DNA of 64,000 nt from the NCBI GenBank assembly GCA_964408995.1, contig CAYPBP010000004.1:16618-80617 (forward strand), given 5' to 3'. This document shows, piece after piece, positions 18,623 to 58,032 of this stretch (positions are counted from its first letter, which is position 1; each line of letters begins with the position of its first letter). The translations under genes were made by a program, and so were the position numbers. The notes under the pieces were generated by a model, which searched no databases, was not told the DNA's origin, and saw only the letters and a program-made list of their open reading frames with translations. Source of the stretch: an uncultured Gammaproteobacteria bacterium. Its GTDB lineage: Bacteria > Patescibacteriota > Microgenomatia > UBA12405.

Positions 18623-19444
18623 ATGAAGATTGGAAAAGATAAAAAAGAACTTTTAATTAGACTTTTGGAGGGATTGTTTTGGTTTTTACTTAAAATTGTT
18701 TTTATATGGCTTGTCGTAATTCAAATATTTGAAAGGCTTGATAAGAGATTGCCTTTCTTTTTTGCCCTAGTAGTAACCTATTTTATTTCCGCTTATGTTA
18801 TTTTGCCACAAGCTATTCGTTTAATCTTGCTTATATTAAGAAAAGGAAGGATCCCCCGTTTTACTAGAGGCAGAGATGGATTTCATGTTGATCCGGTGAA
18901 TATAATTTTTTTGGGAACTAAAAATCAATTACAAGATGTTTTTAAAAAGATTGGATGGCATCAGACAGACCCAATAACTATTAAAAGCTCTATAAAAATG
19001 ATTAAAACTTTTGTTTTAAATAAACCATACCCTAAGGCCCCTTTTAGATCATTATTTTTGTTTGGTAGAGAACAAGATTTGGGTTTTCAAGAACCGATTG
19101 GAAATAGCCCTCGAAAAAGACACCATATTAGGTTTTGGGCAACTAATAAAGATCAAATAATTGATCCTTTAGATATAAAATTTTGGACAAAGAAACATAA
19201 GATTGCTTACTCAGAAACCTTTATGTGGGTTGGGGCTGGGAGCGAAGATGTGGGATTTGGTTTGACTGTTAGCTACCAGCCTTCACATAAAGTGAATCAC
19301 AATGTAGATGAAGAAAGAGATTATATTTTATCCTCACTAAAAAAGGCAAAATGTATTAAAAAAATCAGCTATTATGATCCAGGCGAATTTAAAGTTGGAA
19401 AATATACTTCTGATGGACGAATTGCAGTGGCAGAATTGATTTAA
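18623..19444 (+). CDS. Membrane protein, possibly with an LssY-C-like domain
   Basis: Two N-terminal TM helices followed by DPVNIIFLGT...GWHQTD, which I recall as LssY-C-like. This is unverified. Confidence 0.35.
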   Translation: MKIGKDKKELLIRLLEGLFWFLLKIVFIWLVVIQIFERLDKRLPFFFALVVTYFISAYVILPQAIRLILLILRKGRIPRFTRGRDGFHVDPVNIIFLGTKNQLQDVFKKIGWHQTDPITIKSSIKMIKTFVLNKPYPKAPFRSLFLFGREQDLGFQEPIGNSPRKRHHIRFWATNKDQIIDPLDIKFWTKKHKIAYSETFMWVGAGSEDVGFGLTVSYQPSHKVNHNVDEERDYILSSLKKAKCIKKISYYDPGEFKVGKYTSDGRIAVAELI

Positions 19445-22233
19445 TTAGACTTTTTTACCGTTAAAGTGTCACCATTTTCTATAGAGACAGCTAAAGTTTT
19501 ACTTTTGATTTGATCTTCAAATAATTTTGGCCAGTTTGGAGCTGTAATTTTGATTTTATCGTTTATTTCTAAACCAGCTTCACGTCGTAGAACTTGAATT
19601 GATCTGACTAAATCACGATATTCCCCTTCGGCAATAAGCTCTGGGGTCAAATTAGTATCCAAAACAACAGCTAAATCTTCTTTTTTAGATTCAAAAACAA
19701 TTTCTTTAACATTAGTTTCCTGGGCAATGATATTAATTAAGTCTTGGCTTAATTTGAAATCTTGATTAATAGTGGCCTTGGCTAATGGTTGACGAAGTTT
19801 TAAGTTGAATTTTTGTCTTTGACCATGAATTAATTGACAGATATTTCTAACTGATTCCATGGCTTTTTCAAGATTAGGATTGATTAAATTTTTATCGGCT
19901 TTTGGCCAATCTTCTAAATGAACACTTTGATCAGAACTAGCAATATCAAAACCACAAAGGTTTTGATAAATAATTTCAGAAACAAAAGGGATAAAAGGAG
20001 TTAGGAATCGAGAAATTTGGTTAAAACAGAAATATAAAAGCTGGTTATTATCACTTCGATCACGACTACGACGAATGTACCAAGTGGATAAATCACTAAC
20101 AAAGTTTTCAATAGCTTTAGTGGCAGTTGAGGTGGTGTATTTATCTAAACTTTCAGTAGTTTTTTGGATAGTTGAATTTAGTCTGGACAAAAGCCAAAGA
20201 TCCATAGTGTTGGTAGTTTTTGGAGCAGTTTGATTGTCTTTATCTGGTTGCCAATTTTCCATGTTGGCATGTTGAGTGAAAAAACGATAAGAATTCCAAA
20301 GAATAAGGAGGAAATCTTTTTTAACTTGATCAGCAATATTGTAACCAAAATTGACACTGGTAAAAGCTTTTTGCTGACAATAAAGCCAACGCATTGGGTC
20401 AACACCCATTTTAGCTACAGCTTCATCGTAAGGAATACCATTTTTTTTGGTTTTACTCATCCTCTCACCTTTTTCATCTCTAACTTCAGCATAAGTAACG
20501 ACATTTTTGTATGGAGGAACATCTTCAAAAGTGACAGAAAAATAAAGCATGGAATAAAACCAAAGTCTAACTTGTTCGGTCATTTCCAAAACCATTTCAG
20601 CTGGGAACCATTTTTGCCAATAATCTTTATTATCTAAATACTTTAGGGTGGAAAAAGGAACTACACCAGCATCAAGCCAGACATCGCCGACATCAGGAAT
20701 ACGTTTAACGTTTTGACCGCATTTAGGACATTTGATCTCAATTTCATCAATCCAAGGACGATGAAAAGATGGAAGCCTTTCGACGAGTTCAGGGTTAACA
20801 GCTTTTTCTTGTAATTCTTCTTTGGAACCAATGACAACTAATTCGCCACAGTCACATTGATAGAAAGGCAGAGCTAAACCATAAAAACGTTTACGATTAA
20901 TCATCCAATCTTCCATTGAGTCGAGCCAATTTTGCATGCGACGACCAGCGTATTTAGGATGCCAATTTACTTTTTTGGCAGCTTCTTTTAATAAGGGACG
21001 GATTTTATCTGAATTAATAAACCAAGAATCTTCTAGTCGGAAGAGACATTTGGTTTTACAACGCCAACAATGAGGATAACGATGAGTAACTGATTCAGTT
21101 TTGAATAATAAATCTTTGGATTTTAGATAATCAAAAACCTTTTCATTAACATCGTGAGCATAGAGACCACTTAATTCACCATAACCTTCTAAGAAATGAC
21201 CAGCAGTATCAAGTGGAGCAATCATATCAGCTCCAAGTTTTTTACCTAATTCAAAATCTTCTTGACCACAACCAGGAGCAATGTGAACAACACCAGTACC
21301 ATCTTCTGGGCTGACTTCATCCCAATTAGTGATGTAGTGTTTAACTCCAATTTGTGCCGGAATATCATAAAGAGATTCATATTCTAGATTTAATAAAGTT
21401 TTAGCATCAATACTTTCATAATCAGTTAAAGCAAGTCGGTCGGCGGCAACCTTGGCAAGATATATAACACTGCCTTCGAATTTAGCTTTAACATATTCAA
21501 AATCAGTATTAATGGCTAACAAAACATTGGCTGATAAAGTCCAAGGAGTAGTGGTCCAAACTAAAACATATTCATTTTGACGATCTTTTAATTTGAATTT
21601 CAAATAAACTGAAGTATCAGTGTCCATTTGGTAACCATCGGCTTCTTCGTGCTGAGATAAACCAGTTTCACAACGAGGACACCAAGTGGTGGCTGATTTT
21701 TTCTTGATTAACCAACCTTTTTGCCAAACAGTTTTTAAAAAGTGCCAAATATAGAGATTGTTTGTTTGAGAATTGGTGTAATAAGAATCGTCCCAATCCA
21801 TAAACATGCCAAGACGTTTGGATTGTTCGGTTTGAATTTGACTATATTTATTGACTCGAGCCAAACAAGCATTAGTAAAATTATCCATGCCAAAATCTAA
21901 AATATCTTTTTTAGAGTTAAATCCGGATTCTTTTTCAACTTCGACTTCGACCCAAAGACCTTGGCAATCAAAACCATTTTGAAATCTTTGAGCAAAACCT
22001 TGGCTGTTTTTATAACGCTGGAAAACGTCTTTTAGAGCTCGACCCCTGGCATGATGAACACCCATGGGGTTATTGGCAGTGATAGGACCATCAATAAAAC
22101 TAAAAATCTTATCTGAAGAATCGTTTTTGTGAAGATATTTTTGGACCACATCGTGGGTATACCAAAAATCAACTAACTTGGTTTCCAGTTCGGGAAAGTT
22201 TGGTAATGATGGTAAATCTTTAAAGAATGACAT
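19441..22233 (-). CDS. ileS: Isoleucine-tRNA ligase
   Basis: 930 aa class I aaRS. It has the IleRS-specific WTTTPWTL motif, KMSKS as MSKTK, DVWLDAG and Zn-ribbon Cys pairs. The HIGH region is atypical (GVHHARG). Confidence 0.8.
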   Translation of the reverse strand: MSFFKDLPSLPNFPELETKLVDFWYTHDVVQKYLHKNDSSDKIFSFIDGPITANNPMGVHHARGRALKDVFQRYKNSQGFAQRFQNGFDCQGLWVEVEVEKESGFNSKKDILDFGMDNFTNACLARVNKYSQIQTEQSKRLGMFMDWDDSYYTNSQTNNLYIWHFLKTVWQKGWLIKKKSATTWCPRCETGLSQHEEADGYQMDTDTSVYLKFKLKDRQNEYVLVWTTTPWTLSANVLLAINTDFEYVKAKFEGSVIYLAKVAADRLALTDYESIDAKTLLNLEYESLYDIPAQIGVKHYITNWDEVSPEDGTGVVHIAPGCGQEDFELGKKLGADMIAPLDTAGHFLEGYGELSGLYAHDVNEKVFDYLKSKDLLFKTESVTHRYPHCWRCKTKCLFRLEDSWFINSDKIRPLLKEAAKKVNWHPKYAGRRMQNWLDSMEDWMINRKRFYGLALPFYQCDCGELVVIGSKEELQEKAVNPELVERLPSFHRPWIDEIEIKCPKCGQNVKRIPDVGDVWLDAGVVPFSTLKYLDNKDYWQKWFPAEMVLEMTEQVRLWFYSMLYFSVTFEDVPPYKNVVTYAEVRDEKGERMSKTKKNGIPYDEAVAKMGVDPMRWLYCQQKAFTSVNFGYNIADQVKKDFLLILWNSYRFFTQHANMENWQPDKDNQTAPKTTNTMDLWLLSRLNSTIQKTTESLDKYTTSTATKAIENFVSDLSTWYIRRSRDRSDNNQLLYFCFNQISRFLTPFIPFVSEIIYQNLCGFDIASSDQSVHLEDWPKADKNLINPNLEKAMESVRNICQLIHGQRQKFNLKLRQPLAKATINQDFKLSQDLINIIAQETNVKEIVFESKKEDLAVVLDTNLTPELIAEGEYRDLVRSIQVLRREAGLEINDKIKITAPNWPKLFEDQIKSKTLAVSIENGDTLTVKKSN

Positions 22234-22266: not shown

Positions 22267-22731
22267 TTATATTTGGTTCATTACCTCAATTATGTGGCTA
22301 GTAGAAAAGGATGGAATTCTTTTAATAACTTCGACTAATTTGGCACCGACTAGTTTGGCTTGAGTTTTTTTAATTTCGGTTTTTTCGTCCCCTTTGGTGA
22401 TGGCAATTACTGATGGTTTAATTTCTTTTACTAAATCAGTATATTGTTGACCATTAATTTCTGGTAATAAAATTACCCAATCGACCATATCTAAATTAAT
22501 TAATATTTCAGCTCGATTTTGCTCTTTATTTATTGGTCTGTCATTACCTTTTAATTTTTTAATAGTGGCATCGGATTCTAGTAAAACAACTAAAGTTTTA
22601 CCCAGCTTTTTGGCTTTTTTCAAAAAACTAATGTGGCCCAAATGAAGAATATCAAAACAACCTCCGACCAAAACTATCTCTTGGTTTTTTTCGAGTTTGT
22701 TTAGTTGATTAATTTTGATGATATTGGACAT
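22267..22731 (-). CDS. Cytidylyl/adenylyltransferase of the RfaE domain II / HldE-C type
   Basis: VLVGGCFDILHLGHISFLKKAKKLGKTLVVLLESDATIKKLKGNDRPIN closely matches D-beta-D-heptose-1-P adenylyltransferase (HIGH-type nucleotidyltransferase). Confidence 0.7.
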   Translation of the reverse strand: MSNIIKINQLNKLEKNQEIVLVGGCFDILHLGHISFLKKAKKLGKTLVVLLESDATIKKLKGNDRPINKEQNRAEILINLDMVDWVILLPEINGQQYTDLVKEIKPSVIAITKGDEKTEIKKTQAKLVGAKLVEVIKRIPSFSTSHIIEVMNQI

Positions 22732-22775
22732 ATAGATTGGTAATGTATTATACCTTTTGGTATTATTAATTTATA

Positions 22776-23423
22776 ATGAAAAAGTTTATTAGATTGTACA
22801 AGCCTCAAATAATAGCCTGTAGCCCGTTTTTTGTTATAGCTTTGATTATTGTTGTTCTTCATCTATTCCTGCATCCTGTAAGAGTTCTTGATATGAGTAC
22901 AAGTATATTTTATATGGATGAAAAACACACTTTGGCAGCTTTATTTTTAACACTGACGTCATTTTTGGTTGGATATTTAATATTAGTTAACCTAGTTAAT
23001 AAAAAAAACAAAACTGAACGGTTAATTAACCTTTTTTATGGTTTGTTTTTTATTATTCTTTCTATTGATGAATATTTTGAAGTTCATGAATATGCTAATA
23101 CTCTTGTAAAGGCTGCTATTAAAAATGATGGAATTGGTAAATCATTGACTAATTGGTCTTGGATTTTTCCGTTATCATTAATAATTTTAGCTGTATTTGT
23201 ATTATTTATAGTAAAAATTAAAAATCTAAAGCCTAATGCCAGGCTACCTATTATTTTAGGAACACTGTCTTTTGGGTTGGTGTTAATCTTTGAATTATTG
23301 GGTGCGGCTACTTATGGAAACAATATTTATGTATATTTTGTAGCAATTGAAGAAGGTATGGAAATGATTGGAATTTCTTTCTTTTTACTTGCTGTTTTGG
23401 TGGAAAATAAAAAGATATTATAA
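22776..23423 (+). CDS. Integral membrane protein, hypothetical
   Basis: Multiple TM helices and no known motif. Confidence 0.45.
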   Translation: MKKFIRLYKPQIIACSPFFVIALIIVVLHLFLHPVRVLDMSTSIFYMDEKHTLAALFLTLTSFLVGYLILVNLVNKKNKTERLINLFYGLFFIILSIDEYFEVHEYANTLVKAAIKNDGIGKSLTNWSWIFPLSLIILAVFVLFIVKIKNLKPNARLPIILGTLSFGLVLIFELLGAATYGNNIYVYFVAIEEGMEMIGISFFLLAVLVENKKIL

Positions 23424-25178
23424 TTGTTTGTAGATTGATTCAATTTGATCAACCATTGATTTTATAGAGAATTTTTTTGAATCAATCATAGCCTGTTTTC
23501 CAATTTTATCTCGCAAATTTTTATCTATTAAAATTTTTTTTAATAGATTTGATAATTCTTGTGAATTTTTCGGATTTACAAGAAAACCGTTTTTATTATT
23601 TTTAATAAATTCTTTTGGTCCACCAGTATTAGAGGCAATTACTACTTTTCCGGCTGCCATAGCTTCTAAATACATTAGTCCAAAGGTTTCATATAATGCT
23701 GGCACACAAACAATATCTGCTCCAGAATAAAATTCTGGCATTTTATCTGGGCTAATTATTGGTATAAATTTTACATTTTTTTCCAGTTTTTTTTCTTTGA
23801 CTATTTCTTTTATAGTTATTTTTGTATTTGCTAATACTTTATTTGCACATACTTCGTTTGAAATACTTACTAATAAAAAATTATTAATTCCATTTTTTAT
23901 TAATTTCCCCAGAGCATCGAAAACTAATTTTAAATTCTTTTGTTTATTAAGTTCTCCATTGGTTAAACTAAATAACCTGGCTGGACTAAAAAGAATTATT
24001 CTTCCTTCTTTTCTAAATTTAGACATTGTATTTCCGACTTTTGCTTTTGAAAAAAGATTAGTATCAATTCCGTTATAAATTACATTTATTTTTTTAGCAT
24101 TTGTTCCTAATTTTTTCCACTCTTTTTTAACAAAATCACTAACACAAATTAAATAGTCCCATGGTAATTCCCTTAGTGGTTTTGTCACCTCACAATCTTT
24201 TAATTGAGCATTATGAGCATGTTCAATTATTGGAATTCCAGAATTTTTTACTGTTTTAAATATTTTTAATACTGTTTTGACTCCTATGGATTTATCTTTA
24301 CTTCCAGATGGATATGTTCCATTATGAAAATGAAAGATGTCTGGTTTATTTCTTTTTAAAATTTCAAACAAGTCGTAATCAACTTTTTGTTCATTCTGAA
24401 AATTTTTGGAATCAACATATTTTCTTCTAAATACTTTAATTCCAAAGACTTTTTCATCAGTCTCTTTTCCATCATCCAGTACTGATGTTAATACTGATAC
24501 TTCATATCCTCTTTTTACTAACTCCCGAGCTTGATTTAATAATATTGTTTCGGCTCCACCAACTTTAGGATAAAAAAACCAACTAAAAAACATTATTGAT
24601 CTGTTTTTATTTTTTTCTTTTAAAACGGGTAGTTCTTTAAAATAGTTGTGGCCAAAATTATCTTTATTTAAATTTATCCAATTTTTTAAAATAAAACTAT
24701 TAAACATAGCATGGCCTACTAATAAAATATTTTTTTTAGAATATTTATTAATAAATTTTCTTAAATCTAGATACCTTTTATCTAACAAATCTGGTTTTTC
24801 ACCTTTGGTGAAAACCCAATTTTGAAAATTATTTGATTGAACATTTTTATAATCATTTGGATATTTTTTTTGGGCTTGGGCTGATGTCATTCCACTAATT
24901 ATTCCAACATCAACTTCATTTAATAATTTAGTTTTAATTATTAGAATATTTTTTCCATAACTTTCTTTTTGTTGTTTTTGATAAATTTTTGCTGTTTGAT
25001 AAGCTCTTTTTAAATTACTACAAATTATTACATCAAATTGATATTTTCCAGCTATTTTTATAGCTTGTTTTTTTACTTCTTCTTTTCCTTTACTTATTAG
25101 TGATGTATCTATGCGACTACCAGCAAAAAAATTTTTTTGATTATGTTCAGATTTTGCATGTCTAACTAAAACAATCAT
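23418..25178 (-). CDS. Fusion protein: N-terminal histidine phosphatase (PGM-like) plus C-terminal GT4 glycosyltransferase
   Basis: The N-terminus MIVLVRHAKSEHN carries the RHG-motif family signature. The C-terminal half is a GT-B fold (EHAHN..., E..FGLMYLEAMAAGKVVIASNTGG). Confidence 0.7.
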   Translation of the reverse strand: MIVLVRHAKSEHNQKNFFAGSRIDTSLISKGKEEVKKQAIKIAGKYQFDVIICSNLKRAYQTAKIYQKQQKESYGKNILIIKTKLLNEVDVGIISGMTSAQAQKKYPNDYKNVQSNNFQNWVFTKGEKPDLLDKRYLDLRKFINKYSKKNILLVGHAMFNSFILKNWINLNKDNFGHNYFKELPVLKEKNKNRSIMFFSWFFYPKVGGAETILLNQARELVKRGYEVSVLTSVLDDGKETDEKVFGIKVFRRKYVDSKNFQNEQKVDYDLFEILKRNKPDIFHFHNGTYPSGSKDKSIGVKTVLKIFKTVKNSGIPIIEHAHNAQLKDCEVTKPLRELPWDYLICVSDFVKKEWKKLGTNAKKINVIYNGIDTNLFSKAKVGNTMSKFRKEGRIILFSPARLFSLTNGELNKQKNLKLVFDALGKLIKNGINNFLLVSISNEVCANKVLANTKITIKEIVKEKKLEKNVKFIPIISPDKMPEFYSGADIVCVPALYETFGLMYLEAMAAGKVVIASNTGGPKEFIKNNKNGFLVNPKNSQELSNLLKKILIDKNLRDKIGKQAMIDSKKFSIKSMVDQIESIYKQL

Positions 25179-26533
25179 TATTCTATAATGGCTAATAATT
25201 CAGCTAAAACACGAATAGTCTTATCAGCTGCTTCTTTGAGTTCTTTAGATTTTGGTCTATAAGCTACACTTAATTTTGCTTGTTTAAAAGCTGCTAAACT
25301 TTTGTCGTTTCCGGCAACCATAATGGTTTGCGAAGGTTTTACTTTTTGTGATTTTATAGCTTTATAAAAAGATTTAGAAAATCCCTCATCAAAAGTATCA
25401 TTCATCCAATTGATTGATTCTTCTTTTATTTTACCTGTATATTTACCTTTTTTCTTCTCTAAACATATTCCATCCCAAAAATGAATACCTAATCTGTTGG
25501 CGTAAACTTCTACGATTGGTGAAAAGTTTGAGCTGATTATTCCAACTTGATACTTTCTTCTTATTAATGCTTTAATTACTTCTTGGGCATAACGAACAAT
25601 TGGTAATTTAGAAACAATTTCTTCTACTGTAGAAACTTTGGTTTCAATGAATAGTTTTGCGTTCTTTGCGAGATATTCTCTAGCTGTTATTTTTCCTTTT
25701 TCTAAAGAATCATGATTTTTATTAATTTCTTCTTGAATTCCTAAAATTTTATATAATTCTCCAAGAGCAGACTCATTAATTAAAGTATTATCTAACGTAA
25801 ATAAAACTAATTTGTAATTATGACGAATTAGGCCAGCTTTAGAAATCATTGTTTCTAATACTTGCCGACTCATTTCTTTAACTGTTTCAGCTGAATTTTC
25901 TCTGTTGACTAAAGAGCCAATGTTAACTTCAACAATCCTTTGTTCTGATTCAATAGCATCAAAAAGTAAGCCAATATCTACTCCATACCTATCAGCAAAT
26001 TCAGCATTTATTAAAAAACTTTTTTTGGCACAAATTTGACCACTAATTGGTTGATCGAAATACATACTAGGGAATAGTATTTCCATCATTGGTTTTACTG
26101 CAAATTCTGTAACCCTACCTCTGGCTCGAGTAAAAGATCCTCTAGCCATGTCTACCTTATCTAATAATACTGGTTCTACAATTTTAAATATTTTTTGACT
26201 AGTTATATTGCCTAAATCAGCATCTAAGAATAAAATTATTTCATTTCTTGCTTTTTTAACCCCAGTTTTTAAAGCTAAACCCTTACCTCTGTTTTTATTT
26301 AATTTAATATATGTGAAACGTTCTTCGTTTTCAAATTGTTTTACTGCTATTTCTGTATCATCAGTACTCCCATCATCTATAAAAATTAGTTCATCCATTT
26401 GGGGAATTTTTAATAATTCTAAAACTACTTTTACAAAACGTGGGTTTTCATTATAAGAAGGTACAACAGCAGAAAATTTTTGTGAAACTTCTTTATCTAG
26501 TTCGTTAGTTAGAAGTTCATTTGAATTTAACAT
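25178..26533 (-). CDS. Fusion protein: N-terminal GT-A glycosyltransferase (GT2/GpgS-like) plus C-terminal HAD phosphatase
   Basis: VVPSYNE...IDDGSTDDT...RGKGLALK...FLDADL is a GT-A DxD-type fold. The C-terminus carries HAD motifs (LVLFTLDNTLI ... GNDKSL). Confidence 0.7.
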   Translation of the reverse strand: MLNSNELLTNELDKEVSQKFSAVVPSYNENPRFVKVVLELLKIPQMDELIFIDDGSTDDTEIAVKQFENEERFTYIKLNKNRGKGLALKTGVKKARNEIILFLDADLGNITSQKIFKIVEPVLLDKVDMARGSFTRARGRVTEFAVKPMMEILFPSMYFDQPISGQICAKKSFLINAEFADRYGVDIGLLFDAIESEQRIVEVNIGSLVNRENSAETVKEMSRQVLETMISKAGLIRHNYKLVLFTLDNTLINESALGELYKILGIQEEINKNHDSLEKGKITAREYLAKNAKLFIETKVSTVEEIVSKLPIVRYAQEVIKALIRRKYQVGIISSNFSPIVEVYANRLGIHFWDGICLEKKKGKYTGKIKEESINWMNDTFDEGFSKSFYKAIKSQKVKPSQTIMVAGNDKSLAAFKQAKLSVAYRPKSKELKEAADKTIRVLAELLAIIE

Positions 26534-26835
26534 CGTTTATTATAACATCTTATACAATAAAAATACAAAATATTGGCTAAAGTTTGAGGAAATATGTTAT
26601 AGATACTATTTCTGTATTCTATAAAATTGAAGCAGGAAATAAAAAATACTTTTATCGGACTGAGAATATTGAAAACATCAGGCCTACGTTTCACTACGGC
26701 CTGCGAAAGCGGAACATGTGGGTCTAGCACCATTCTGTCCCTATAACACCCACATTTGATTGTCTAATTTTACCATTCTATTCATCCTAAGGTTAGAGAG
26801 TAGAACTAAATTACCAATATAAATAATTAACCCTC

Positions 26836-26865
26836 TTGACAATAAATTAGCACTCGTTTTACAAT
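26836..26865 (+). promoter_or_regulatory. hsp20 promoter (-35 TTGACA, 18-nt spacer, -10 TACAAT) overlapping a CIRCE-like half-site TTAGCACTC
   Basis: Read directly from the sequence. A perfect CIRCE left arm lies at 26847-26855; the right arm is degenerate. Confidence 0.6.
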
Positions 26866-27021
26866 ACTGCTAGGTGGTTAGAAAAACCAATATAGCATTA
26901 GCCTGCGATAGTGGCTTAATAATCATCATTGCAGTCTCCTTGGTGGGGACGCCTACAATGTAAATTGGTGATCTTCTAACCACCTTAATTAATTATTTTT
27001 ATATTTAATAAGGAGGTAAAA

Positions 27022-27450
27022 ATGTCAGTCAACATTGTTCCTAAAAAAATGTTATCTTTTCCTTCTTTTTCTCTACCCAGTCTTTGGGATGAGGATGAAG
27101 ATTGGTTTATGACTCCATCCACTCAGAGTGGACTATCTGTTTACGAAGATGACAGTAAAGTATATATTGAAACAGCTATTCCAGGGATAAACCCTAAAGA
27201 TGTCGAGGTTACCTTTCAAGATGGCTATCTATGGGTAAGGGCTGAAACTAAAGAAGAGGAAAAAGATAAAAATAAAAAATATTACCGTCAAGCCAGCCAG
27301 TCATTTTCTTACCGTGTAGCTGTTCCCGGTGAAGTTGATTCCAATAAAGAACCGGAGGCAACATATAAACACGGAATGATGACAATTACTTTTAATAAAA
27401 TTCCGAAGTCTCAGCCAAAAAAAATACAAATAAAGACAATTGACGAATAA
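27022..27450 (+). CDS. Small heat shock protein, Hsp20/alpha-crystallin family
   Basis: An alpha-crystallin domain (VYIETAIPGINPKDVEVTFQDGYLWVRAE...) preceded by an AAGGAGG Shine-Dalgarno. Confidence 0.85.
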   Translation: MSVNIVPKKMLSFPSFSLPSLWDEDEDWFMTPSTQSGLSVYEDDSKVYIETAIPGINPKDVEVTFQDGYLWVRAETKEEEKDKNKKYYRQASQSFSYRVAVPGEVDSNKEPEATYKHGMMTITFNKIPKSQPKKIQIKTIDE

Positions 27451-27610: not shown

Positions 27611-27693
27611 CGGAAGGGATGGGAGTCGAACCCACATGCCATTTCTGACGCAGGTTTAGCAAACCTGTGGCTTACCATTCGCCGCACCCTTCC
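27611..27693 (-). tRNA. tRNA-Ser (anticodon GCU), class II with a long variable arm
   Basis: Reverse complement GGAAGGGTG...CAGGT TTGCTAA ACCTG CGTCAGAAATGGCATG TGGGTTCGACTCCCA TCCCTTCC G. It has a 7-bp acceptor stem and T-loop TTCGACT. Confidence 0.85.
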
Positions 27694-28304: not shown

Positions 28305-28378
28305 GTACTCGTAGCTCAATTGGATAGAGCATTGGTTTGCGGAACCAAAGGTTGGAGGTCCGAGCCCTCTCGAGTACA
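28305..28378 (+). tRNA. tRNA-Arg, apparent anticodon GCG
   Basis: GTACTCG TA GCTC AATTGGATA GAGC A TTGGT TTGCGGA ACCAA AGGTT GGAGG TCCGAGC CCTCT CGAGTAC A. The cloverleaf is good; G37 is consistent with Arg. Confidence 0.75.
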
Positions 28379-28810: not shown

Positions 28811-28894
28811 GGTGGGATGCACCGAATTGGTAAGGTACCCCGTTCGAAACGGGACGTTCGCAAGGACATGGGGGTCCGACTCCCTCTCCCACCG
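28811..28894 (+). tRNA. tRNA-Ser (anticodon CGA), class II
   Basis: GGTGGGA...CCCCG TTCGAAA CGGGA...long variable arm...GGGGG TCCGACT CCCTC TCCCACC G. One mismatch in the anticodon stem and an unusual T-loop. Confidence 0.6.
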
Positions 28895-41911: not shown

Positions 41912-43240
41912 TTATTTAACTTTGAATATTTGCTTGTCTTTAATCACAAATTTTGTCTTAAAAAGGCTTAGGATCTCTTGTTTTTCTTCTGAAAAACCAG
42001 TTTTTAGAACGTGAACGATATAATCTTTCATTCTTTCTTTATCTGACTTCTCTTTTATTATTGGATAGTCCATAATTTCAAATTGTTGGGTAAACATCTC
42101 TTGATGAAGAACATCCTCTCTTAATCGGTGATAATGTTCAATTTCCTCTCTTATTTTCTTATTAATAGCATCTTGATCAAACTCTATTTCGTCAATTTTA
42201 GACAATAGTTGATTAATTAAGTCATCTTCAGTGATATAAGGCTGGGTACAGTCATAATTTACTGATCGGCCGCAATGATAATAGACATATCGGTTAACTT
42301 TTCCATTAGTTAAATTCTTGTATTTCTCTTCAGCAGTTATTCCCCCTCCACATTGGCCACATTTAAATAAACCTTTGAAAGGAAAAACTTGTTTATTCCA
42401 GGATCTTGATGGGGCGATTAATTGTATTTGAGTTTTATCAAAAATTTCTTTAGTTATAATTGGTTTATGTTTTCCTTTGTAGAATTTACCTCCAAATTCA
42501 AATTCACCATAATAAAATGGATTTTTTAAGATTCGATAAATTTCTCCAATAGCTACTCTTTTACCAACTTTGGTTTTAAAACCACTTTTGTCTAGCCAAT
42601 ATTTAATCGTTCGTCCACTTTGGCCTTGATTGGCAGCTCTTTCAAATATTTCTTTAACAATTGGAGCTCTTTTTCTGTCAATTTCAATACAAGAAATTCT
42701 ATTTTCAGTTAATTTGTTAATATAACCAATTGGAGCTGATCCTGGCCTCCATCCTGCCTCACATTTAGCTCTAAGGCCTCTTTTAACGTTAATACCTCGA
42801 TTATCATTTTCTAGTTTGGCTTGAGAGCATAAAATCATTAAAAGAAACTTTTCATTTGGATTATTGGAAAATGATTGAGAAAAAGTTCGGATAATTTGTA
42901 GTTTCCTTTGATCCATTAAATCTACTAATGTTCCAAGATCGCCAGCATTTCTACTTAATCGGTCTGGTGCCCAAGTTAAAATGGCATCAAATTCTCCATT
43001 TCGGATATCAATTAAAAGTTTATTGAAGATTGGTCTTAACCCTGATGATTTAGCTGAATGGCTTTCTTGTCTAACTTCTTTAATAAATAATCCATCCCTG
43101 TTGGCTAAATCTTTCATCTCTTTAATTTGAGAATCGATTGACATAGCCTGTCGCTCGTCAGATTCGGTCGATTTTCGAGCATAAAGACAATAGTTTAACC
43201 GCTCATTTTCTTGGATAGTTCCATTTTTTTCATTTTTCAT
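41912..43240 (-). CDS. Large serine recombinase (resolvase/invertase catalytic domain, recombinase domain and Zn ribbon)
   Basis: YCLYARKSTESDERQAMSIDSQ (catalytic Ser motif), DRLSRN, and CGQCGGG...YYHCG as the Zn ribbon. Confidence 0.85.
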   Translation of the reverse strand: MKNEKNGTIQENERLNYCLYARKSTESDERQAMSIDSQIKEMKDLANRDGLFIKEVRQESHSAKSSGLRPIFNKLLIDIRNGEFDAILTWAPDRLSRNAGDLGTLVDLMDQRKLQIIRTFSQSFSNNPNEKFLLMILCSQAKLENDNRGINVKRGLRAKCEAGWRPGSAPIGYINKLTENRISCIEIDRKRAPIVKEIFERAANQGQSGRTIKYWLDKSGFKTKVGKRVAIGEIYRILKNPFYYGEFEFGGKFYKGKHKPIITKEIFDKTQIQLIAPSRSWNKQVFPFKGLFKCGQCGGGITAEEKYKNLTNGKVNRYVYYHCGRSVNYDCTQPYITEDDLINQLLSKIDEIEFDQDAINKKIREEIEHYHRLREDVLHQEMFTQQFEIMDYPIIKEKSDKERMKDYIVHVLKTGFSEEKQEILSLFKTKFVIKDKQIFKVK

Positions 43241-43282
43241 GATGGGACTATACCGCAGTAAAAATACTTATCAACTAGATGA

Positions 43283-44095
43283 TTATTCTTTACCATTTAA
43301 AATGTTTTCATTTGGCATTTTCCCATTATTCAATTTTTTCCAAAAGTCATACAATTTATCTTGTATTTCTTTAGGATTTTCTTCTTCTTTTCCAAAAAAC
43401 ATTGAAACCCATAGAATCGATTGAGACGCGGTGATTAAAGCCATTGAAATATCACCCTCAGCAATGCGTTCAAGTATCTCTTGATCAGATGATCCCTGTG
43501 TCCAAACATCAATAGAAGAAACATGATTTTTTCTATTTCCATGCATATATTCCTTCAATACAATTTGTTTTTGAAAATCTGGCATGTTAGTTTTTTGAGC
43601 AATAAAATCAATCATTCCTTCAATATCTAATCCTGCCCAGTTTTTTCTTCCTTTAGTTTCTTTTGATAATTTTAAATATTTTTCTTCAACTTCATTTCTG
43701 AAATTATCATCGACATGTAATTTGTTAAAATCTAAAAAATCGATATCAGCTTTATCTTCTACAGCAATATAATCTATTAATCTTTTAGAATATTTCGCCT
43801 TACCCTTAAGATTTATATAAACCATAGCAATACTATCTTCAAAGATTCTTCTTGATAAATCTAAAATTGATCCAGAAAAAACAATTAAATTCCCTCTATC
43901 TATTTTTATTTGATCAATCAAAACCAACATTGTTTGCATTGTGAAAAAATCTTTTCTAATAACACCTTCAAGGATCTGACCGAATAATTCTTTACACGTG
44001 TTTTTCTTCGGTATTAAAGGGTATATTATTTCGTATATTTCTTGAAATTTAAGATACAAACTATAGAAATCATTATCTTCAAACTTTTTTTTCAT
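43283..44095 (-). CDS. Hypothetical protein (island cargo)
   Basis: A 270-aa ORF with no recognisable motif. Confidence 0.4.
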   Translation of the reverse strand: MKKKFEDNDFYSLYLKFQEIYEIIYPLIPKKNTCKELFGQILEGVIRKDFFTMQTMLVLIDQIKIDRGNLIVFSGSILDLSRRIFEDSIAMVYINLKGKAKYSKRLIDYIAVEDKADIDFLDFNKLHVDDNFRNEVEEKYLKLSKETKGRKNWAGLDIEGMIDFIAQKTNMPDFQKQIVLKEYMHGNRKNHVSSIDVWTQGSSDQEILERIAEGDISMALITASQSILWVSMFFGKEEENPKEIQDKLYDFWKKLNNGKMPNENILNGKE

Positions 44096-44124
44096 CTCTA
44101 ATTTTATAACAAGAATTAAAAAAA

Positions 44125-44823
44125 TTAAATTTTTGTATCTAAAAGTCGACTAACAATACTTTCTACTTCCTCTTCTGTAATACCAAATTTAGTAGCTGTC
44201 TCTTTGGTTGATTTGGTTTCAGCTTCATAACTATCTGAAACACTTTCATATTTTTTATAAAGACTCATAGAATATTCATAAATTTCTTTTTCTCTGTCTG
44301 TTCCAGACACTTCCTTTTCTTGTGGTCCTAATTCTGGAGTTATTGTAATAGCTTTTCCATTTATTGCCTTTATCGAATCTTTACTTACTTCCCAAGTAAA
44401 AATTTGATCAAGACCTAGTGTTCTAAAAGAATAATCAACATTATATATTCCATCACTATTTAAAGATGCAGACCAACTTCCAGTTTTAGTAGTTGGATCA
44501 GCTTTCATTCCCTTTAATACTAAATTCTCTAAGTAAACAGAAACAGCCATTCCTTTTGTTGATTTATCTATGGTTTTTAAATCATTTTTTATTTCATAAT
44601 TTTTCAACATTGAAATTGCATCACTCTTAGTTAGAGATTCTGCTTTTTTAATTGATTTAGGCGTTGATGCTTGGTTTGCCACTTGTTCTTCTTTATATTG
44701 TTTTCCTTTCTCAAAAGCTTCTTTTGCATCTTTATTGCCAATATTTGAAATAGTTGTTAGTAATAATATAACCAAAAAAGCAGAAACTATTTTATGTCTT
44801 AAAAACCAATTCTTCTTTTTCAT
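44125..44823 (-). CDS. Secreted or membrane-anchored hypothetical protein
   Basis: An N-terminal signal/anchor (MKKKNWFLRHKIVSAFLVILLLTTISNI). Confidence 0.4.
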   Translation of the reverse strand: MKKKNWFLRHKIVSAFLVILLLTTISNIGNKDAKEAFEKGKQYKEEQVANQASTPKSIKKAESLTKSDAISMLKNYEIKNDLKTIDKSTKGMAVSVYLENLVLKGMKADPTTKTGSWSASLNSDGIYNVDYSFRTLGLDQIFTWEVSKDSIKAINGKAITITPELGPQEKEVSGTDREKEIYEYSMSLYKKYESVSDSYEAETKSTKETATKFGITEEEVESIVSRLLDTKI

Positions 44824-44950
44824 ATTTTTTATAAATTGTTAATTCAACATCATACTAACTGTGGCTTAGCACAAAGTCAAGGCTATGTTGTGCCTCTTTG
44901 CTAAGTCTGACTTAGTAGAGTATTGGTTTAACTTTTCATAGTCTTTTGGT

Positions 44951-45166
44951 ATGAGAAGTAATGCCAAATTAACCAAAACTATTTGTAAAAGAATTAAAAA
45001 ATATAGAAGTGACAGAGGTTTAACTCAGGAAGATTTAGCCGAAAAAGTTAGAGTTAGTCGAGTTTATATTGGCTATGTCGAGCAAGGCCGAAATACTCCA
45101 TCTTTGGAAGTTTTAGAAAAAATAGCTAAGTCTTTAAAGGTAGATGTTGGTGACCTTCTGAAATAA
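44951..45166 (+). CDS. XRE-family HTH regulator (candidate island repressor)
   Basis: LTQEDLAEKVRVSRVYIGYVEQGRNTPSLEVLEKIAKSL. Confidence 0.8.
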   Translation: MRSNAKLTKTICKRIKKYRSDRGLTQEDLAEKVRVSRVYIGYVEQGRNTPSLEVLEKIAKSLKVDVGDLLK

Positions 45167-45920
45167 ATATTAATTTCGGAAAGTATTTATAAAGATTTTT
45201 AATTATTTCCCCTCTTATTATTATCCTTTGATTTTCATAAATTACATTTGAAAAAATATTGTCTTGAATGTAATCTAAGTGTTCTTCTATTGTTTCTAAT
45301 ATTCTTTTTTCAAAAAATGTTTTTAAATAACTTTCTATAATAAAACCTTTCATAAATGGATCAACTGGAAAAGCTGACTTAAGGTTTATCTTCCTACAAT
45401 GTTTTCTAATTCCAGATAAGTCATGTAAACATTTAAAAAAATATAAATTTTCTTTTCCAAAGACATTGTCAAATAAATAATTATTAATCAATAAATCTAC
45501 TGTTATTGATAAAAAAAGATCCAACTCAAAATAAAGATAAAAACAAATATCTGAATATGTTGCTATTTTACCTAATACAACTGAATAAATTTTCATTTTA
45601 TGAACTTTTAATTTTGGATTTTTATTTATTTCATATCTATAAATCAATATAGAAATCTCATTGACTAATGCTAAAAATGTTAAATAATGAATTTTTGCCT
45701 CTAAATCTTCCAATTGAATCATTTTTATTAATTCAACCCATTGGTTAGTTTCACATCTATCACTTTCTTCTGTTTCACCAATCATTTCTTTTATTTCATC
45801 CATTCTGAAAATAGGAGCAGAATTATCTACTCTATAATAATTAGAAAAGATAAGGGATATCTTTTCTTTTGGCAAAAATTGTGGTTGTTTTATCTTTTTT
45901 TTAATTGTATTTGGTTTCAT
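45126..45920 (-). CDS. Hypothetical protein
   Basis: A 264-aa ORF. Its 3' end overlaps the XRE gene convergently by 40 nt. Confidence 0.35.
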   Translation of the reverse strand: MKPNTIKKKIKQPQFLPKEKISLIFSNYYRVDNSAPIFRMDEIKEMIGETEESDRCETNQWVELIKMIQLEDLEAKIHYLTFLALVNEISILIYRYEINKNPKLKVHKMKIYSVVLGKIATYSDICFYLYFELDLFLSITVDLLINNYLFDNVFGKENLYFFKCLHDLSGIRKHCRKINLKSAFPVDPFMKGFIIESYLKTFFEKRILETIEEHLDYIQDNIFSNVIYENQRIIIRGEIIKNLYKYFPKLIFISEGHQHLPLKT

Positions 45921-46432
45921 AATTTTTTTTTAAAAGCAGAAAACTTGGATAAAACTTCAATCTTTTTAGCCTCATTTTCATGATCTTTAATCTGACTTGA
46001 ACTATTAATAATTGATCTAAGGATATAAAAGAAAAACCTAGGAATTTTTCCTTTTATTACATTCTTGGATATTAACTGAAGTGCAGTTTCTGGATTTGAA
46101 GAAATAACAGTTTTTATTAGTTCTTGTTTATCTTTTTCAGAAAGATAAACTTTATTATTTGAATAACTAGGGTGATGATTATTAAGCCAATAAATAATTG
46201 CTGTCATATTTTTATCTTTAATAGCAGATATTAACTGTGATTCGGCGATGTCATTAATAAAAAGGTTGCCATATTTAATGGCTTCATCAGTTTTTTGCTT
46301 AAATTCTTTATTATTAGCGCGCCATCTATAATAACTAGCTCGACTGATATTGGTTATTTCACATGTTATCTGAACGATTGGTGTCTTTTTCAATTGTTCA
46401 ATTAATAGTTTTTTATCCTCATCGATTTTCAT
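45917..46432 (-). CDS. Small HTH-containing protein (IS3-OrfA / phage small-terminase-like SRASYYRW motif)
   Basis: ITCEITNISRASYYRWRANNKEF resembles HTH_Tnp/Psq-type motifs. It lies downstream of the ParB-methyltransferase gene, as in phage packaging modules. Confidence 0.35.
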   Translation of the reverse strand: MKIDEDKKLLIEQLKKTPIVQITCEITNISRASYYRWRANNKEFKQKTDEAIKYGNLFINDIAESQLISAIKDKNMTAIIYWLNNHHPSYSNNKVYLSEKDKQELIKTVISSNPETALQLISKNVIKGKIPRFFFYILRSIINSSSQIKDHENEAKKIEVLSKFSAFKKKL

Positions 46433-47742
46433 ATTTCTTTAGTTTTTGAAAATGATTGATAATTATTGACATATACAACATCATTATTAGTTATTTTTTT
46501 ATATCGAGAAATTATGAGATCACAAAATATTGGTTCAACTTCAGCCATCAGACATTTTCGTTTTAATTGTTCACAGCTACACATAGTTGAACCTGAGCCG
46601 GCAAATAAATCTAAAACTGTGTCTCCAACTCTAGTGCATCTTCTTATGGCTTTTTCGTGGAGAGTAGGACTCTTTTCAGTTGGATGAGTATATTCATTTC
46701 CAGGCAATCTTTTTATTAACCAAATATTTAATAAATCAAGAATATTGTCGATTGTTTGATTACCTGAGCCAATTTCTTTATTCATAATTTCGTTTAGATT
46801 CTTGGGATTTTCAGAAATTGGTGCTTTACCAATTGTTCCATAGACACACGCCTCGTAACTTTTATTAAAGGCAGTATTTGGTGTGGGTGAAAATCCGTTT
46901 TTTATCCATAAGCATACCCGTTTATTTTTTATTCCAATTTCCTTATACAAATCTTGAATTAAACCGATATTACACTCATCACTCCAAAAAAATATATGAC
47001 AATCTAATTTAGAAATAACTAATGCATTTTCAATTGTTTTTTTTAAAAAACTTCTATATTCTTTATCTGTTTTATTATCATTAGTCTTTCCTCCATATGT
47101 TCCCTTACCTCCAATCCCCTTATTATAATCAAGTGAAATGTTAAACGGAGGATCACAATAAACCATAGATACCTCTTTATTTGATGTCAGTTGATTAACA
47201 ACTGACAAGTCGGTACTATCACCACAAATCAACAGATGAGGACCAAGTTGAACAATATCGCCTAATTTAGTTCTTGGTTCCTTAATCTTTTCAATCTCTC
47301 TCTGCGTATCAAAATTATCATCTTCTGTGTCTAAATTTTTGTCCCAAATTTTTGATAAATCGCTATTATCAAAACCAATATTCATCAGCATTTCAACGTC
47401 GAAATTTTTTAATAAATCAAAATTCCACGTGCCAGTATTACGATTTAACCTAAGGTTCAACTCTTTTTCTCTTTCAATGTCTGGAATATTTATATAAATA
47501 ACTGGTATTTCCTTATACCCAAGCTGTTTAGCTATTTCTAGACGAAAATTTCCACCAATTACAATTCCTTGGCGATTCTCAGCAGAATTCACCAAAATTG
47601 GATCAACTATTCCAAAACGTTCAATACTCTCCTTGAGATTGTCTGATTGTTCCTTGCTCCAATGTCTTGGATTGTATTCGGGATTTTTTAAATTATTAAT
47701 ACGAACATTCTCTATCTTTATTTTCTCGTTTTTATCAGTCAT
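46429..47742 (-). CDS. ParB-like nuclease domain fused to an N6-adenine/N4-cytosine DNA methyltransferase (phage-type ParB-MTase)
   Basis: The N-terminus carries ParB motifs (GIVDPILV...VIGGNFRLEIAKQLG). The methyltransferase has motif IV DPPF (VYCDPPFNI) and a C-terminal motif I FAGSGST, the beta-class order. Confidence 0.8.
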   Translation of the reverse strand: MTDKNEKIKIENVRINNLKNPEYNPRHWSKEQSDNLKESIERFGIVDPILVNSAENRQGIVIGGNFRLEIAKQLGYKEIPVIYINIPDIEREKELNLRLNRNTGTWNFDLLKNFDVEMLMNIGFDNSDLSKIWDKNLDTEDDNFDTQREIEKIKEPRTKLGDIVQLGPHLLICGDSTDLSVVNQLTSNKEVSMVYCDPPFNISLDYNKGIGGKGTYGGKTNDNKTDKEYRSFLKKTIENALVISKLDCHIFFWSDECNIGLIQDLYKEIGIKNKRVCLWIKNGFSPTPNTAFNKSYEACVYGTIGKAPISENPKNLNEIMNKEIGSGNQTIDNILDLLNIWLIKRLPGNEYTHPTEKSPTLHEKAIRRCTRVGDTVLDLFAGSGSTMCSCEQLKRKCLMAEVEPIFCDLIISRYKKITNNDVVYVNNYQSFSKTKEI

Positions 47743-47796
47743 TGCGACCTCCTAATTCAATAAATAAAGCTCAGAGCCTTTCTAGTATCTCTGACT

Positions 47797-47882
47797 TATC
47801 TATCTCATTAGGTATTGCTAGAAACCTACATAAAAACATGGAATTATCTATCTATTATCTTTTGAAATTTCTTATCTATCTC
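47797..47882. promoter_or_regulatory. Three direct repeats of (C/A)TTATCTATCT in the divergent promoter region between the ParB-methyltransferase gene and the endonuclease gene
   Basis: Copies at 47797-47808, 47844-47855 and 47871-47882, read directly from the sequence. Confidence 0.45.
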
Positions 47883-48023
47883 TTATTCTTATCAATCTAT
47901 TTATTGTCGAACTAAACAATTGTACAACTTCTTAAGAAGAAAAGCTAATATGTAAAATCATCAAATTATTTTTTCAAATTAAATTTTGATTAGCAGTTTT
48001 AAAATCTTGATGGCGGTATAATT

Positions 48024-49448: not shown

Positions 49449-49479
49449 TCAATTTGTTTTTATTTGTTAGAATGGCTTT

Positions 49480-50760: not shown

Positions 50761-50843
50761 TGTTTTTATTCCTAATTTTAATGTTGTAGTTAATCTTATA
50801 TTTTCATGATATCCTTTGTTATTAATAATAATGATTCAAATGT

Positions 50844-52106: not shown

Positions 52107-52111
52107 AATTT

Positions 52112-55055: not shown

Positions 55056-55092
55056 TAAAACTTTTTTTATCTGAATATCTAAATCAAAAAAA

Positions 55093-57859: not shown

Positions 57860-58032
57860 TAAAAGATTACTATAACTGGTCACGATTGTTATTTTTGTAA
57901 TTATAAAAAAGTAACTTAAGAGATTGAATAAGACTTTATTTTAAAATAAATTGAGTAATTTTATTCATAGTAGTAAGATAGGCCAATAGATTAGCTGGTA
58001 GTTTGATCTAATAAATAATTTTGATTAAATAA

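Follow-up and report, generated by a model that had tools for sequence, protein, structure and literature searches.

A GpgS-like synthase with a degenerate HAD domain and a histidine phosphatase–GT4 fusion form a putative glycosyl-glycerate module in Patescibacteria

When two neighboring glycosyltransferases are each joined to a domain of a phosphatase fold, do both phosphatases work, and what is made? This question is raised by a pair of adjacent genes on contig CAYPBP010000004.1 (GenBank assembly GCA_964408995.1) from an uncultured member of the Patescibacteria. The stretch of DNA analyzed here, termed the window, covers 64,000 nucleotides of this contig (positions 16,618 to 80,617) and has a G+C content of ~30%. 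Its nearest relatives are Microgenomates-type Patescibacteria metagenome-assembled genomes (MAGs), for example those of Shapirobacteria and Roizmanbacteria. The reading favored here is that the two genes form a module that makes a glycosyl-glycerate-type soluble glycoside through a family 81 glycosyltransferase (GT81), a histidine phosphatase and a family 4 glycosyltransferase (GT4). We give this reading a probability of roughly 55%.

A preliminary description of this DNA had reported three open reading frames (ORFs), of which two encode fusions of a glycosyltransferase with a phosphatase. The ORFs are found where that description placed them, all on the minus strand, and both fusions are real, as established by coordinates, strong domain calls and recurrence in relatives. 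The two fusion genes and their domains are as follows.

25178 to 26533, minus strand: gene 1, predicted GT81 (GpgS-like) synthase with a degenerate HAD-IB domain, 451 amino acids (Pfam, NCBIfam, PDB search, AlphaFold2 and Foldseek)
25820 to 26488, minus strand: GT81 domain of GT-A fold, residues 16–238 of gene 1 (PDB search, alignment, Foldseek)
25193 to 25816, minus strand: pseudo-HAD domain (HAD-IB, SerB-like fold), residues 240–447 of gene 1 (match to phosphoserine phosphatase, motif states)
25796 to 25798, minus strand: codon for Thr246 at the HAD nucleophile position (translation LVLFTLDNT)
25176 to 25180, minus strand: TAATG stop/start overlap of genes 1 and 2 (sequence)
23418 to 25178, minus strand: gene 2, histidine phosphatase–GT4 fusion, 586 amino acids (Pfam, AlphaFold2 model)
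24651 to 25178, minus strand: His_Phos_1 domain, residues 1–176 of gene 2 (Pfam 1.8e-27 over residues 2–176; catalytic residues)
23421 to 24599, minus strand: GT4 retaining glycosyltransferase of GT-B fold, residues 194–586 of gene 2 (Pfam, Foldseek)

Genes 1 and 2 share one base at the TAATG, an overlap that points to one translationally coupled operon. The two genes (26533 to 23418, minus strand) are therefore read as a single putative operon and as one module of three predicted activities, since in relatives the histidine phosphatase is a separate gene that lies between the GT81-HAD gene and the GT4 gene. This arrangement also speaks against the two parallel synthase/phosphatase units of the preliminary description. 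Neither fusion is an assembly artifact, since GT81-HAD proteins occur in >120 clusters at 90% identity and the histidine phosphatase–GT4 fusion recurs in independent assemblies. When 1.84 billion representatives are searched exhaustively with phmmer, only five 50%-identity clusters show an end-to-end histidine phosphatase–GT4 fusion.

The GT-A domain of gene 1 is, on sequence and modeled structure, a GpgS-like member of GT81. It spans residues 16–248 in the Pfam-level call (Glycos_transf_2, 1.3e-23), and its best NCBIfam model is that of GpgS (PRK13915, 1.9e-37, 129 bits). A PDB sequence search returns Mycobacterium tuberculosis GpgS first (4y6n, E 6.9e-23, 84 bits), followed as the second family by Rubrobacter MpgS (2e-12, 50 bits). 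Identity to the mycobacterial enzymes is ~28–31%, and the alignment to GpgS covers the family-specific C-terminal half with its GRVTE, QPxSG and YGVEIGLL motifs. When the AlphaFold2 model of the gene 1 protein (predicted local distance difference test score, pLDDT, 89.4) is searched with Foldseek, GpgS structures come first for this domain (E 2e-17, target TM-score, TMt, ~0.7). Of the earlier label “GpgS/Dpm1-like”, the GpgS-like part stands at the family level, and the Dpm1/WcaA-like part does not; a Dpm1- or ArnC-type identity is rejected, as Dpm1-, ArnC- and GtrB-type enzymes score at most 30 bits, compared to 84 for GpgS.

The DxD motif of the GT81 domain is DAD (residues 104–106), aligned to D134-S-D136 of the M. 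tuberculosis enzyme, and the acceptor loop is present as R138-G-R-V-T-E143; D104, D106, R140 and T142 do not vary across 31 sequences. In M. tuberculosis GpgS, the backbone nitrogen of Val186 and the side chain of Thr187 hold the carboxylate of 3-phosphoglycerate (3-PGA); the phosphate portion of 3-PGA is reported as disordered in the structure (PMC2581804). In this GRVTE loop, the Val and Thr contact the carboxylate not only of 3-PGA in GpgS but also of D-glycerate in MgS.

The second domain of gene 1 retains the fold of a HAD phosphatase. It matches Pfam Hydrolase (1.1e-08), NCBIfam SerB (5.2e-26, below the curated cut-off) and phosphoserine phosphatase (PSP) of Methanocaldococcus jannaschii (1f5s; E 2e-16 by phmmer, residues 240–447 against 5–207). 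In Foldseek, the model superimposes on M. jannaschii PSP and Helicobacter pylori SerB with a TMt of 0.80–0.88 (0.80–0.85 for the former), and the Rossmannoid core and C1 cap are both intact. Its motifs tell of a different state. Motif I is FTLDNTL, which gives F-T246-L-D248-N-T compared to F-D11-F-D13-S-T in M. jannaschii PSP. Motif IV is VAGNDK in the window and VANSxK in the clade consensus compared to the canonical VGDGxxD, and its acidic Mg2+ ligands are gone. With the nucleophile Asp replaced by Thr246 and the Mg2+-ligand Asps of motif IV absent, this domain is, by its motifs, a conserved pseudo-phosphatase which is predicted to be unable to work as a classical HAD phosphatase. The preliminary description had taken the GT-A-HAD protein for a working synthase-phosphatase pair, and the same two losses oppose that view.

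This degeneration is shared by nearly all of the Patescibacteria relatives. The HAD motif columns were read from 110 full-length homologs aligned with MAFFT. Here, the nucleophile column holds Thr in 84 sequences, Ala in 7, Asp in 6, Ser in 5 and Asn in 4. Asp occurs there in five archaeal-type sequences (P0116–P0120), which retain FDFDKTLI and VGDGKSD, and in P0091 only. Among the 105 aligned Patescibacteria homologs, the nucleophile Asp is missing in all but one, and motif IV is degenerate in every member; the Ser of motif II is kept (S334 in the window), its column being Ser in 97 of the 110 sequences. The mean pairwise identity of the 105 Patescibacteria copies is 41% for the HAD domain compared to 60% for the GT81 domain. 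The pseudo-HAD is nonetheless full length in >100 clusters, and it features clade-specific invariant residues (Y315, E318, W376, K438 and T439) that differ from those of the archaeal type. Its length, its 41% identity and these invariants indicate that the domain is under selection and is not freely decaying. Its role is presumably structural, binding or regulatory.

The histidine phosphatase domain at the start of gene 2 appears catalytically complete, in keeping with the preliminary description. The catalytic set R6, H7, N13, R58, E88 and H156 is intact, and it is invariant in 19 cluster-linked homologs. A loss of catalytic residues from the phosphatase domains, which would have told against the earlier interpretation, is thus found in the HAD domain, whereas the histidine phosphatase keeps all of them. 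The best PDB matches of the domain are PspA (4ij5, 3e-11) and the cofactor-dependent phosphoglycerate mutases (dPGMs). A true dPGM is rejected, as the domain is only ~176 amino acids long compared to a core of ~230–250, and the dPGM match covers residues 2–118 only; the pgm_1 model (TIGR01258), whose cut-off is 81.7 bits, gives 56. An ortholog of M. tuberculosis GpgP (Rv2419c) is also rejected, the match being weak (E 4e-4), which leaves it as an analog only. The short domain, the partial dPGM match, the closeness to PspA and the weak match to GpgP together point to a phosphatase-type member of the superfamily, a putative analog of GpgP and not its ortholog.

Gene neighborhoods link this phosphatase to the state of the HAD domain. 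Neighborhoods were compared in Pfam-annotated examples and in 80 loci from species-representative genomes, by phmmer and then by profile hidden Markov models; these include 23 unique Patescibacteria loci and 26 loci with a canonical HAD, the latter searched to ~8 kb. In Patescibacteria, the usual order is GT81-HAD, then a His_Phos_1 gene encoding ~190–225 amino acids, and then GT4. A histidine phosphatase is present in 19 of the 23 loci, nearly always directly downstream, and GT4 is present in 21; in one locus (L011), a weak histidine phosphatase match (25 bits) follows the GT4 gene instead. The canonical-HAD loci come from Woese-, Pace-, Nano-, Aenigm- and Iainarchaeota, Elusimicrobia, Endomicrobia, a planctomycete of the Gemmataceae, and Thermoanaerobaculia, and none of the 26 has a histidine phosphatase or a GT4 gene within ~8 kb. 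There, the archaeal-type GT81-HAD gene is monocistronic and lies amid unrelated genes. Across loci, catalytic loss in the HAD domain and presence of the histidine phosphatase are complementary.

Pairs of GT81 and His_Phos_1 that have no HAD domain at all give independent support for a histidine phosphatase as the partner of GT81. In a locus from Clostridia (L061), a HAD-less GT81 gene is followed 13 nucleotides further on by a His_Phos_1 gene, and a locus from Bacillota (L060) has GT81 without HAD, GT2 and His_Phos_1 in this order. In a DPANN Iainarchaeum MAG (L050:6765-9651), an MscS mechanosensitive channel, a HAD-less GT81 and His_Phos_1 are found in order, and the channel points to osmoregulation. 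Another archaeal locus (L051) has a weak His_Phos match (31 bits) ~0.8 kb beyond its GT81, GT2 and GT4 genes.

Several of these observations bear on whether the genes belong together at all. It could be supposed that a housekeeping phosphatase or mutase and a general cell-envelope GT4 merely adjoin the GT81 gene and are unrelated to its product, as both families, GT4 and His_Phos_1, have many members of varied function and neither domain reaches an equivalog cut-off. Such incidental adjacency would have to be reconciled with a gene order retained down to 42% identity, with overlapping genes, with fusion of the histidine phosphatase to GT4 in several separate lineages, and with the absence of both at 26 of 26 canonical-HAD loci. 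The ~176-residue phosphatase domain, with its dPGM match confined to residues 2–118, does not suit a housekeeping mutase either. We consider this explanation highly improbable.

A further observation on the canonical-HAD proteins is that those of 430 amino acids are nearly identical between DPANN archaea and Elusimicrobia/Endomicrobia (Endomicrobiaceae; L028–L049, L075 and L082). Such near-identity suggests that a putative glucosylglycerate synthase made of one polypeptide was transferred across domains, between DPANN and Elusimicrobia. The titles of the MAGs concerned appear in part to be mislabeled (“Gammaproteobacteria”, “Methanosarcinales”). In another set of loci (L053–L079, from Planctomycetota, Burkholderiales, Leeia, Paucibacter and others), GT81 proteins are 470–830 amino acids long with varied C-terminal extensions, some of which have a canonical DMDGTL HAD motif.

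The fusion of the histidine phosphatase to GT4 is found in P0122 and P0123 (73–76% identity) and in P0138, P0342, P0343 and P0345 (37–42%). In neighbor-joining trees, which were built without support values, the fused clusters lie dispersed between unfused sisters and have different linkers, which suggests recurrent fusion. One ORF encodes the two domains in the window and in its closest relatives, and the linker (residues 169–191) is disordered in the AlphaFold2 model of the gene 2 protein (pLDDT 83.3). In the related locus L001, the histidine phosphatase and GT4 genes overlap by 11 nucleotides. In two other fused lineages (L087 and L093), the upstream gene likewise ends in a degenerate HAD domain.

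The GT4 domain itself is assigned by Pfam (Glycos_transf_1 7.4e-35 and Glyco_transf_4 2.7e-21, residues 203–586), and the EX7E motif lies in its C-terminal domain (E497-x7-E505). Its family of orthologs occurs in this gene cluster only, and relatives outside that family share less than 30% identity. The top Foldseek matches are HepE, BshA, SPS, GlgM and MshA (TMt ~0.8). These structural neighbors are not diagnostic of acceptor type, as enzymes with small anionic or phosphorylated acceptors (BshA, whose acceptor is malate, SPS, GlgM and MshA) are mixed with HepE, WaaG and PimA. Around the module in relatives, genes for a ManC-like nucleoside diphosphate (NDP)-sugar pyrophosphorylase and for phosphoglucomutase/phosphomannomutase (PGM/PMM) are found in L002 and L093, with GalT-like genes ahead of it in L002 and L006; these neighbors fit a local supply of nucleotide sugars.

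The proposed pathway has three steps. First, by homology to GpgS and MpgS, GT81 would move a hexose from an NDP-sugar onto 3-PGA to give a glycosyl-3-phosphoglycerate. Second, the histidine phosphatase domain would remove the phosphate, as a non-orthologous replacement analogous to GpgP (Rv2419c); this assignment draws on gene order, complementarity and recurrent fusion. Third, GT4 would add a second sugar, either onto the phosphorylated intermediate or onto the dephosphorylated glycosylglycerate. With either order of the second and third steps, the product would be a diglycosyl-glycerate akin to mannosylglucosylglycerate (MGG) or glucosylglucosylglycerate (GGG). The logic of a glycoside made through a phosphorylated intermediate, already put forward in the preliminary description, fits GT81 with an intact histidine phosphatase.

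The order of steps in which GT4 acts first and the phosphatase last, as with MggA, would offer a reason for silencing the HAD domain of the gene 1 protein and for linking the phosphatase to GT4. A more specific version of the pathway can be built on this order. The archaeal-type GT81-HAD protein keeps a canonical HAD and stands alone, and the ancestral fusion was therefore probably a synthase-phosphatase. This bifunctional enzyme would have been inherited by Patescibacteria and its HAD domain inactivated, GT4 would glycosylate the phosphorylated intermediate, and the GT4-fused histidine phosphatase would act last to release an undescribed diglycosyl-glycerate. The retained pseudo-HAD might then bind or hand over the phosphorylated intermediate. 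We offer this rewiring as a tentative proposal that is on balance doubtful in its full form.

The histidine phosphatase could instead act ahead of the synthase and produce D-glycerate from 3- or 2-phosphoglycerate, with a GT81 that has switched to D-glycerate and works in one step like the mannosylglycerate synthase of Rhodothermus. The pathway would then need no product phosphatase, so that the HAD domain could be expected to decay, and the closest solved relatives of the histidine phosphatase include the phosphoglycerate mutases, which bind phosphoglycerate. The carboxylate contacts of the GRVTE loop suit either acceptor alike. However, this scheme is less parsimonious, as both a change of acceptor and the gain of an upstream enzyme are called for, compared to one replacement. 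Moreover, M. tuberculosis GpgP, the only characterized histidine phosphatase of such a pathway, hydrolyzes neither 3-PGA nor 2-PGA (PMC3240985), and repeated fusion with GT4, and not with GT81, fits a late step better. An upstream phosphatase is for these reasons judged quite unlikely.

A different question is whether the product of the module is a free solute or the reducing-end primer of an oligosaccharide, polysaccharide or other glycoconjugate. In mycobacteria, glucosylglycerate (GG) primes the methylglucose lipopolysaccharide, MGLP (PMC3240985, PMC2581804). In many Patescibacteria loci, more GT4 and GT2 genes come after the module, and the case that best fits a primer is Berkelbacteria CP011213, in which GT81-HAD is followed by GT4, GT2, a pyruvyl transferase, a GlgA-like GT5, GT2 and an epimerase. 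A primer would also suit the relative at L001 (L001:613-1911, 65% identity), which encodes a 432-amino acid GT2-methyltransferase fusion and, near the module, an 892-amino acid GH31-like protein; these genes are reminiscent of methylated glucan metabolism. In the window, by contrast, GT4 is the only additional glycosyltransferase, and no polymerase or flippase was found in the ORFs scanned. In archaea and Clostridia, the module consists of one or two genes, and the MscS channel of L050 suggests osmoregulation. A primer is thus rated as plausible but unlikely, and a soluble glycosyl-glycerate remains the preferred product.

Several points weigh against this preferred reading. The GT81 domain falls below the GpgS equivalog cut-off (129 compared to 262 bits), and its second metal-ligand His (H258 in M. 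tuberculosis, H217 in MgS) is changed to Asn in the window and in ~15 close relatives (IGSLVNRENS), a position that is His in most other members of the family. For the histidine phosphatase, M. tuberculosis GpgP (4pz9) comes only at rank 29 with 23 bits, behind PspA and the dPGMs, and 4 of the 23 Patescibacteria loci have no histidine phosphatase within the stretch of DNA covered. The complementary pattern is essentially a single phylogenetic event in Patescibacteria, and the loci are therefore not independent. A HAD domain that carries Thr may, to judge by its sequence, have a non-canonical activity. Clusters of the Berkelbacteria type, with many glycosyltransferases, fit a glycan primer as well as a free solute. 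Finally, donor, acceptor and product are all ones that we infer.

The third ORF of the preliminary description and an ORF on the opposite strand lie downstream of gene 2.

22267 to 22731, minus strand: RfaE-II-like nucleotidyltransferase, 154 amino acids, HLGH at residues 30–33 (NCBIfam, PDB match)
22776 to 23423, plus strand: hydrophobic ORF of 215 amino acids between the nucleotidyltransferase and the fusion genes (no Pfam or NCBIfam match)

The description of the nucleotidyltransferase as RfaE-II-like holds. The HLGH motif is present, and the best NCBIfam model is rfaE_dom_II (TIGR02199, 5.5e-35, 120 bits, below the cut-off of 181.5); it also matches CTP_transf_like (5.9e-17) and HldC (5x9q, 2.6e-17). 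Its membership in the cluster, as proposed earlier, does not hold: of 86 related loci, a single one (L009) has a homolog near the module, the gene is widespread elsewhere, and a plus strand ORF lies in between. Patescibacteria have more than 1000 standalone homologs; two of these were examined in context, and neither setting was related to the module. Homologs (P0222–P0341) carry conflicting annotations (rfaE domain II, FAD synthetase, glycerol-3-phosphate cytidylyltransferase), and their hosts lack lipopolysaccharide. The 215-amino acid ORF has no Pfam or NCBIfam match and no homolog in the 86 related loci, and it is judged to be outside the module.

These results bear directly on the interpretation from which the analysis started, in which two self-contained bifunctional enzymes with active phosphatases, together with the nucleotidyltransferase, make up a two-step pathway to an osmolyte or glycan precursor. 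Both proteins do join a glycosyltransferase to a domain of a phosphatase fold, and archaeal-type homologs with a canonical HAD do stand alone. Yet the HAD domain in the window has neither its nucleophile nor the acids of motif IV, the histidine phosphatase gene in relatives adjoins GT81-HAD and is not intrinsic to GT4, and the nucleotidyltransferase is missing from 85 of the 86 loci while being widespread in Patescibacteria. Two independent bifunctional enzymes therefore seem improbable.

Upstream of the operon, a gene for an Hsp20 small heat-shock protein (27022–27450, plus strand) is divergent from it across a 488-bp spacer (26534–27021). The best promoter-like site in the spacer (TTGACA-18-TACAAT, 26836–26865) points to Hsp20. 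The operon and Hsp20 may share stress regulation. Consensus scans of 22–27.1 kb were uninformative, with 26 promoter-like sites (29.3 expected) and 4 terminator-like sites (1.9 expected). An Rfam scan of 18–30 kb found three tRNAs only and no riboswitch or other RNA element. The tRNA genes (27611–27693, minus; 28305–28378, plus; 28811–28894, plus) lie among small ORFs just past Hsp20.

On the other side, LssY_C and IleRS genes beside the module (18623–22233) are also found in the relative L005 in a rearranged order, and the GT4 gene is not in the same place in the window and in L005. Further away, a low-GC stretch (41912–59850, G+C 0.23–0.30) looks like a mobile or defense island. It encodes a large serine recombinase (41912–43240), a fusion of ParB_N with an N6/N4 DNA methylase (46429–47742), a MutH-like endonuclease beside a Dcm C5-methylase (48024–50760), and SNF2 helicase, NOV_C, RNase_H_2 and DUF2130 proteins, as well as a NERD-UvrD helicase (58033–59850).

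The formation of a glycosyl-glycerate through a phosphorylated intermediate is of a known type. What appears to be new is the GT81-HAD-IB architecture, its turn into a pseudo-phosphatase throughout Patescibacteria, a histidine phosphatase recruited in a complementary pattern, and the repeated fusion of this phosphatase to GT4. Full-text literature searches naming these enzymes or solutes returned nothing on these points or on the pathway in Patescibacteria or DPANN, and no GT81-HAD-IB fusion. Glucosylglycerate-family solutes and their enzymes have so far come from a limited set of cultivated organisms, and the module offers a stress-metabolite hypothesis for organisms of almost unknown physiology. 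If the proposal is true, one operon would hold a clean case of pseudoenzyme formation and non-orthologous displacement, with the new phosphatase then repeatedly fused to the next enzyme. Were the rewired pathway also true, it would be the first dedicated compatible-solute or stress-metabolite pathway recognized in these ultra-small symbionts. The names “HAD-IB family phosphatase” and “phosphoserine phosphatase” are probably wrong for >100 Patescibacteria protein clusters. The archaeal-type 430-amino acid proteins are candidate single-polypeptide glucosylglycerate synthases and may serve biocatalysis.

In M. tuberculosis, glucosyl-3-phosphoglycerate (GPG) is dephosphorylated by a histidine phosphatase and not by a HAD enzyme (PMC3240985). 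The module resembles mycobacterial GpgS (Rv1208) and GpgP (Rv2419c) in pairing GT81 with a partner of the histidine phosphatase fold and in its conserved DxD and GRVTE motifs, and a later glycosyl transfer onto the product is likely shared as well. Unlike in the window, the mycobacterial GpgS and GpgP genes are unlinked and unfused, and the window GT81 carries a degenerate HAD domain and an Asn in place of the metal-ligand His.

In Petrotoga mobilis and Rhodopirellula baltica, the GT4 enzyme MggA glycosylates phosphorylated GPG, and a dedicated phosphatase, MggB, acts last (PMC3736172). This MGG pathway likewise features a GPG synthase, a retaining GT4 and a dedicated phosphatase, with the likeness to MggA being one of family (GT4) and gene context only. 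ManC-like and PMM genes beside the module in two relatives add to the likeness. However, MggB is HAD-like, while the phosphatase here is a histidine phosphatase.

Fusions of a glycosyltransferase to a HAD-fold domain also have counterparts in sugar-solute metabolism. Bifunctional synthase-phosphatase fusions include MgsD of Dehalococcoides (MpgS/MpgP) and SPS-SPP-like proteins, and the SPP-like domain is catalytically inactive in many SPS proteins. The gene 1 protein shares with them a glycosyltransferase joined to a HAD-fold domain. It differs in being GT81 with HAD-IB, compared to GT55 with HAD-IIB or GT4 with S6PP, and in that its dead HAD domain is paired with a recruited phosphatase of another superfamily. 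The archaeal-type GT81-HAD-IB proteins of 430 amino acids from DPANN and Elusimicrobia have the same two domains and 35–38% full-length identity. Unlike the window protein, they carry the canonical DxD and GDGxxD motifs, are monocistronic with no histidine phosphatase or GT4 nearby, and are presumably truly bifunctional.

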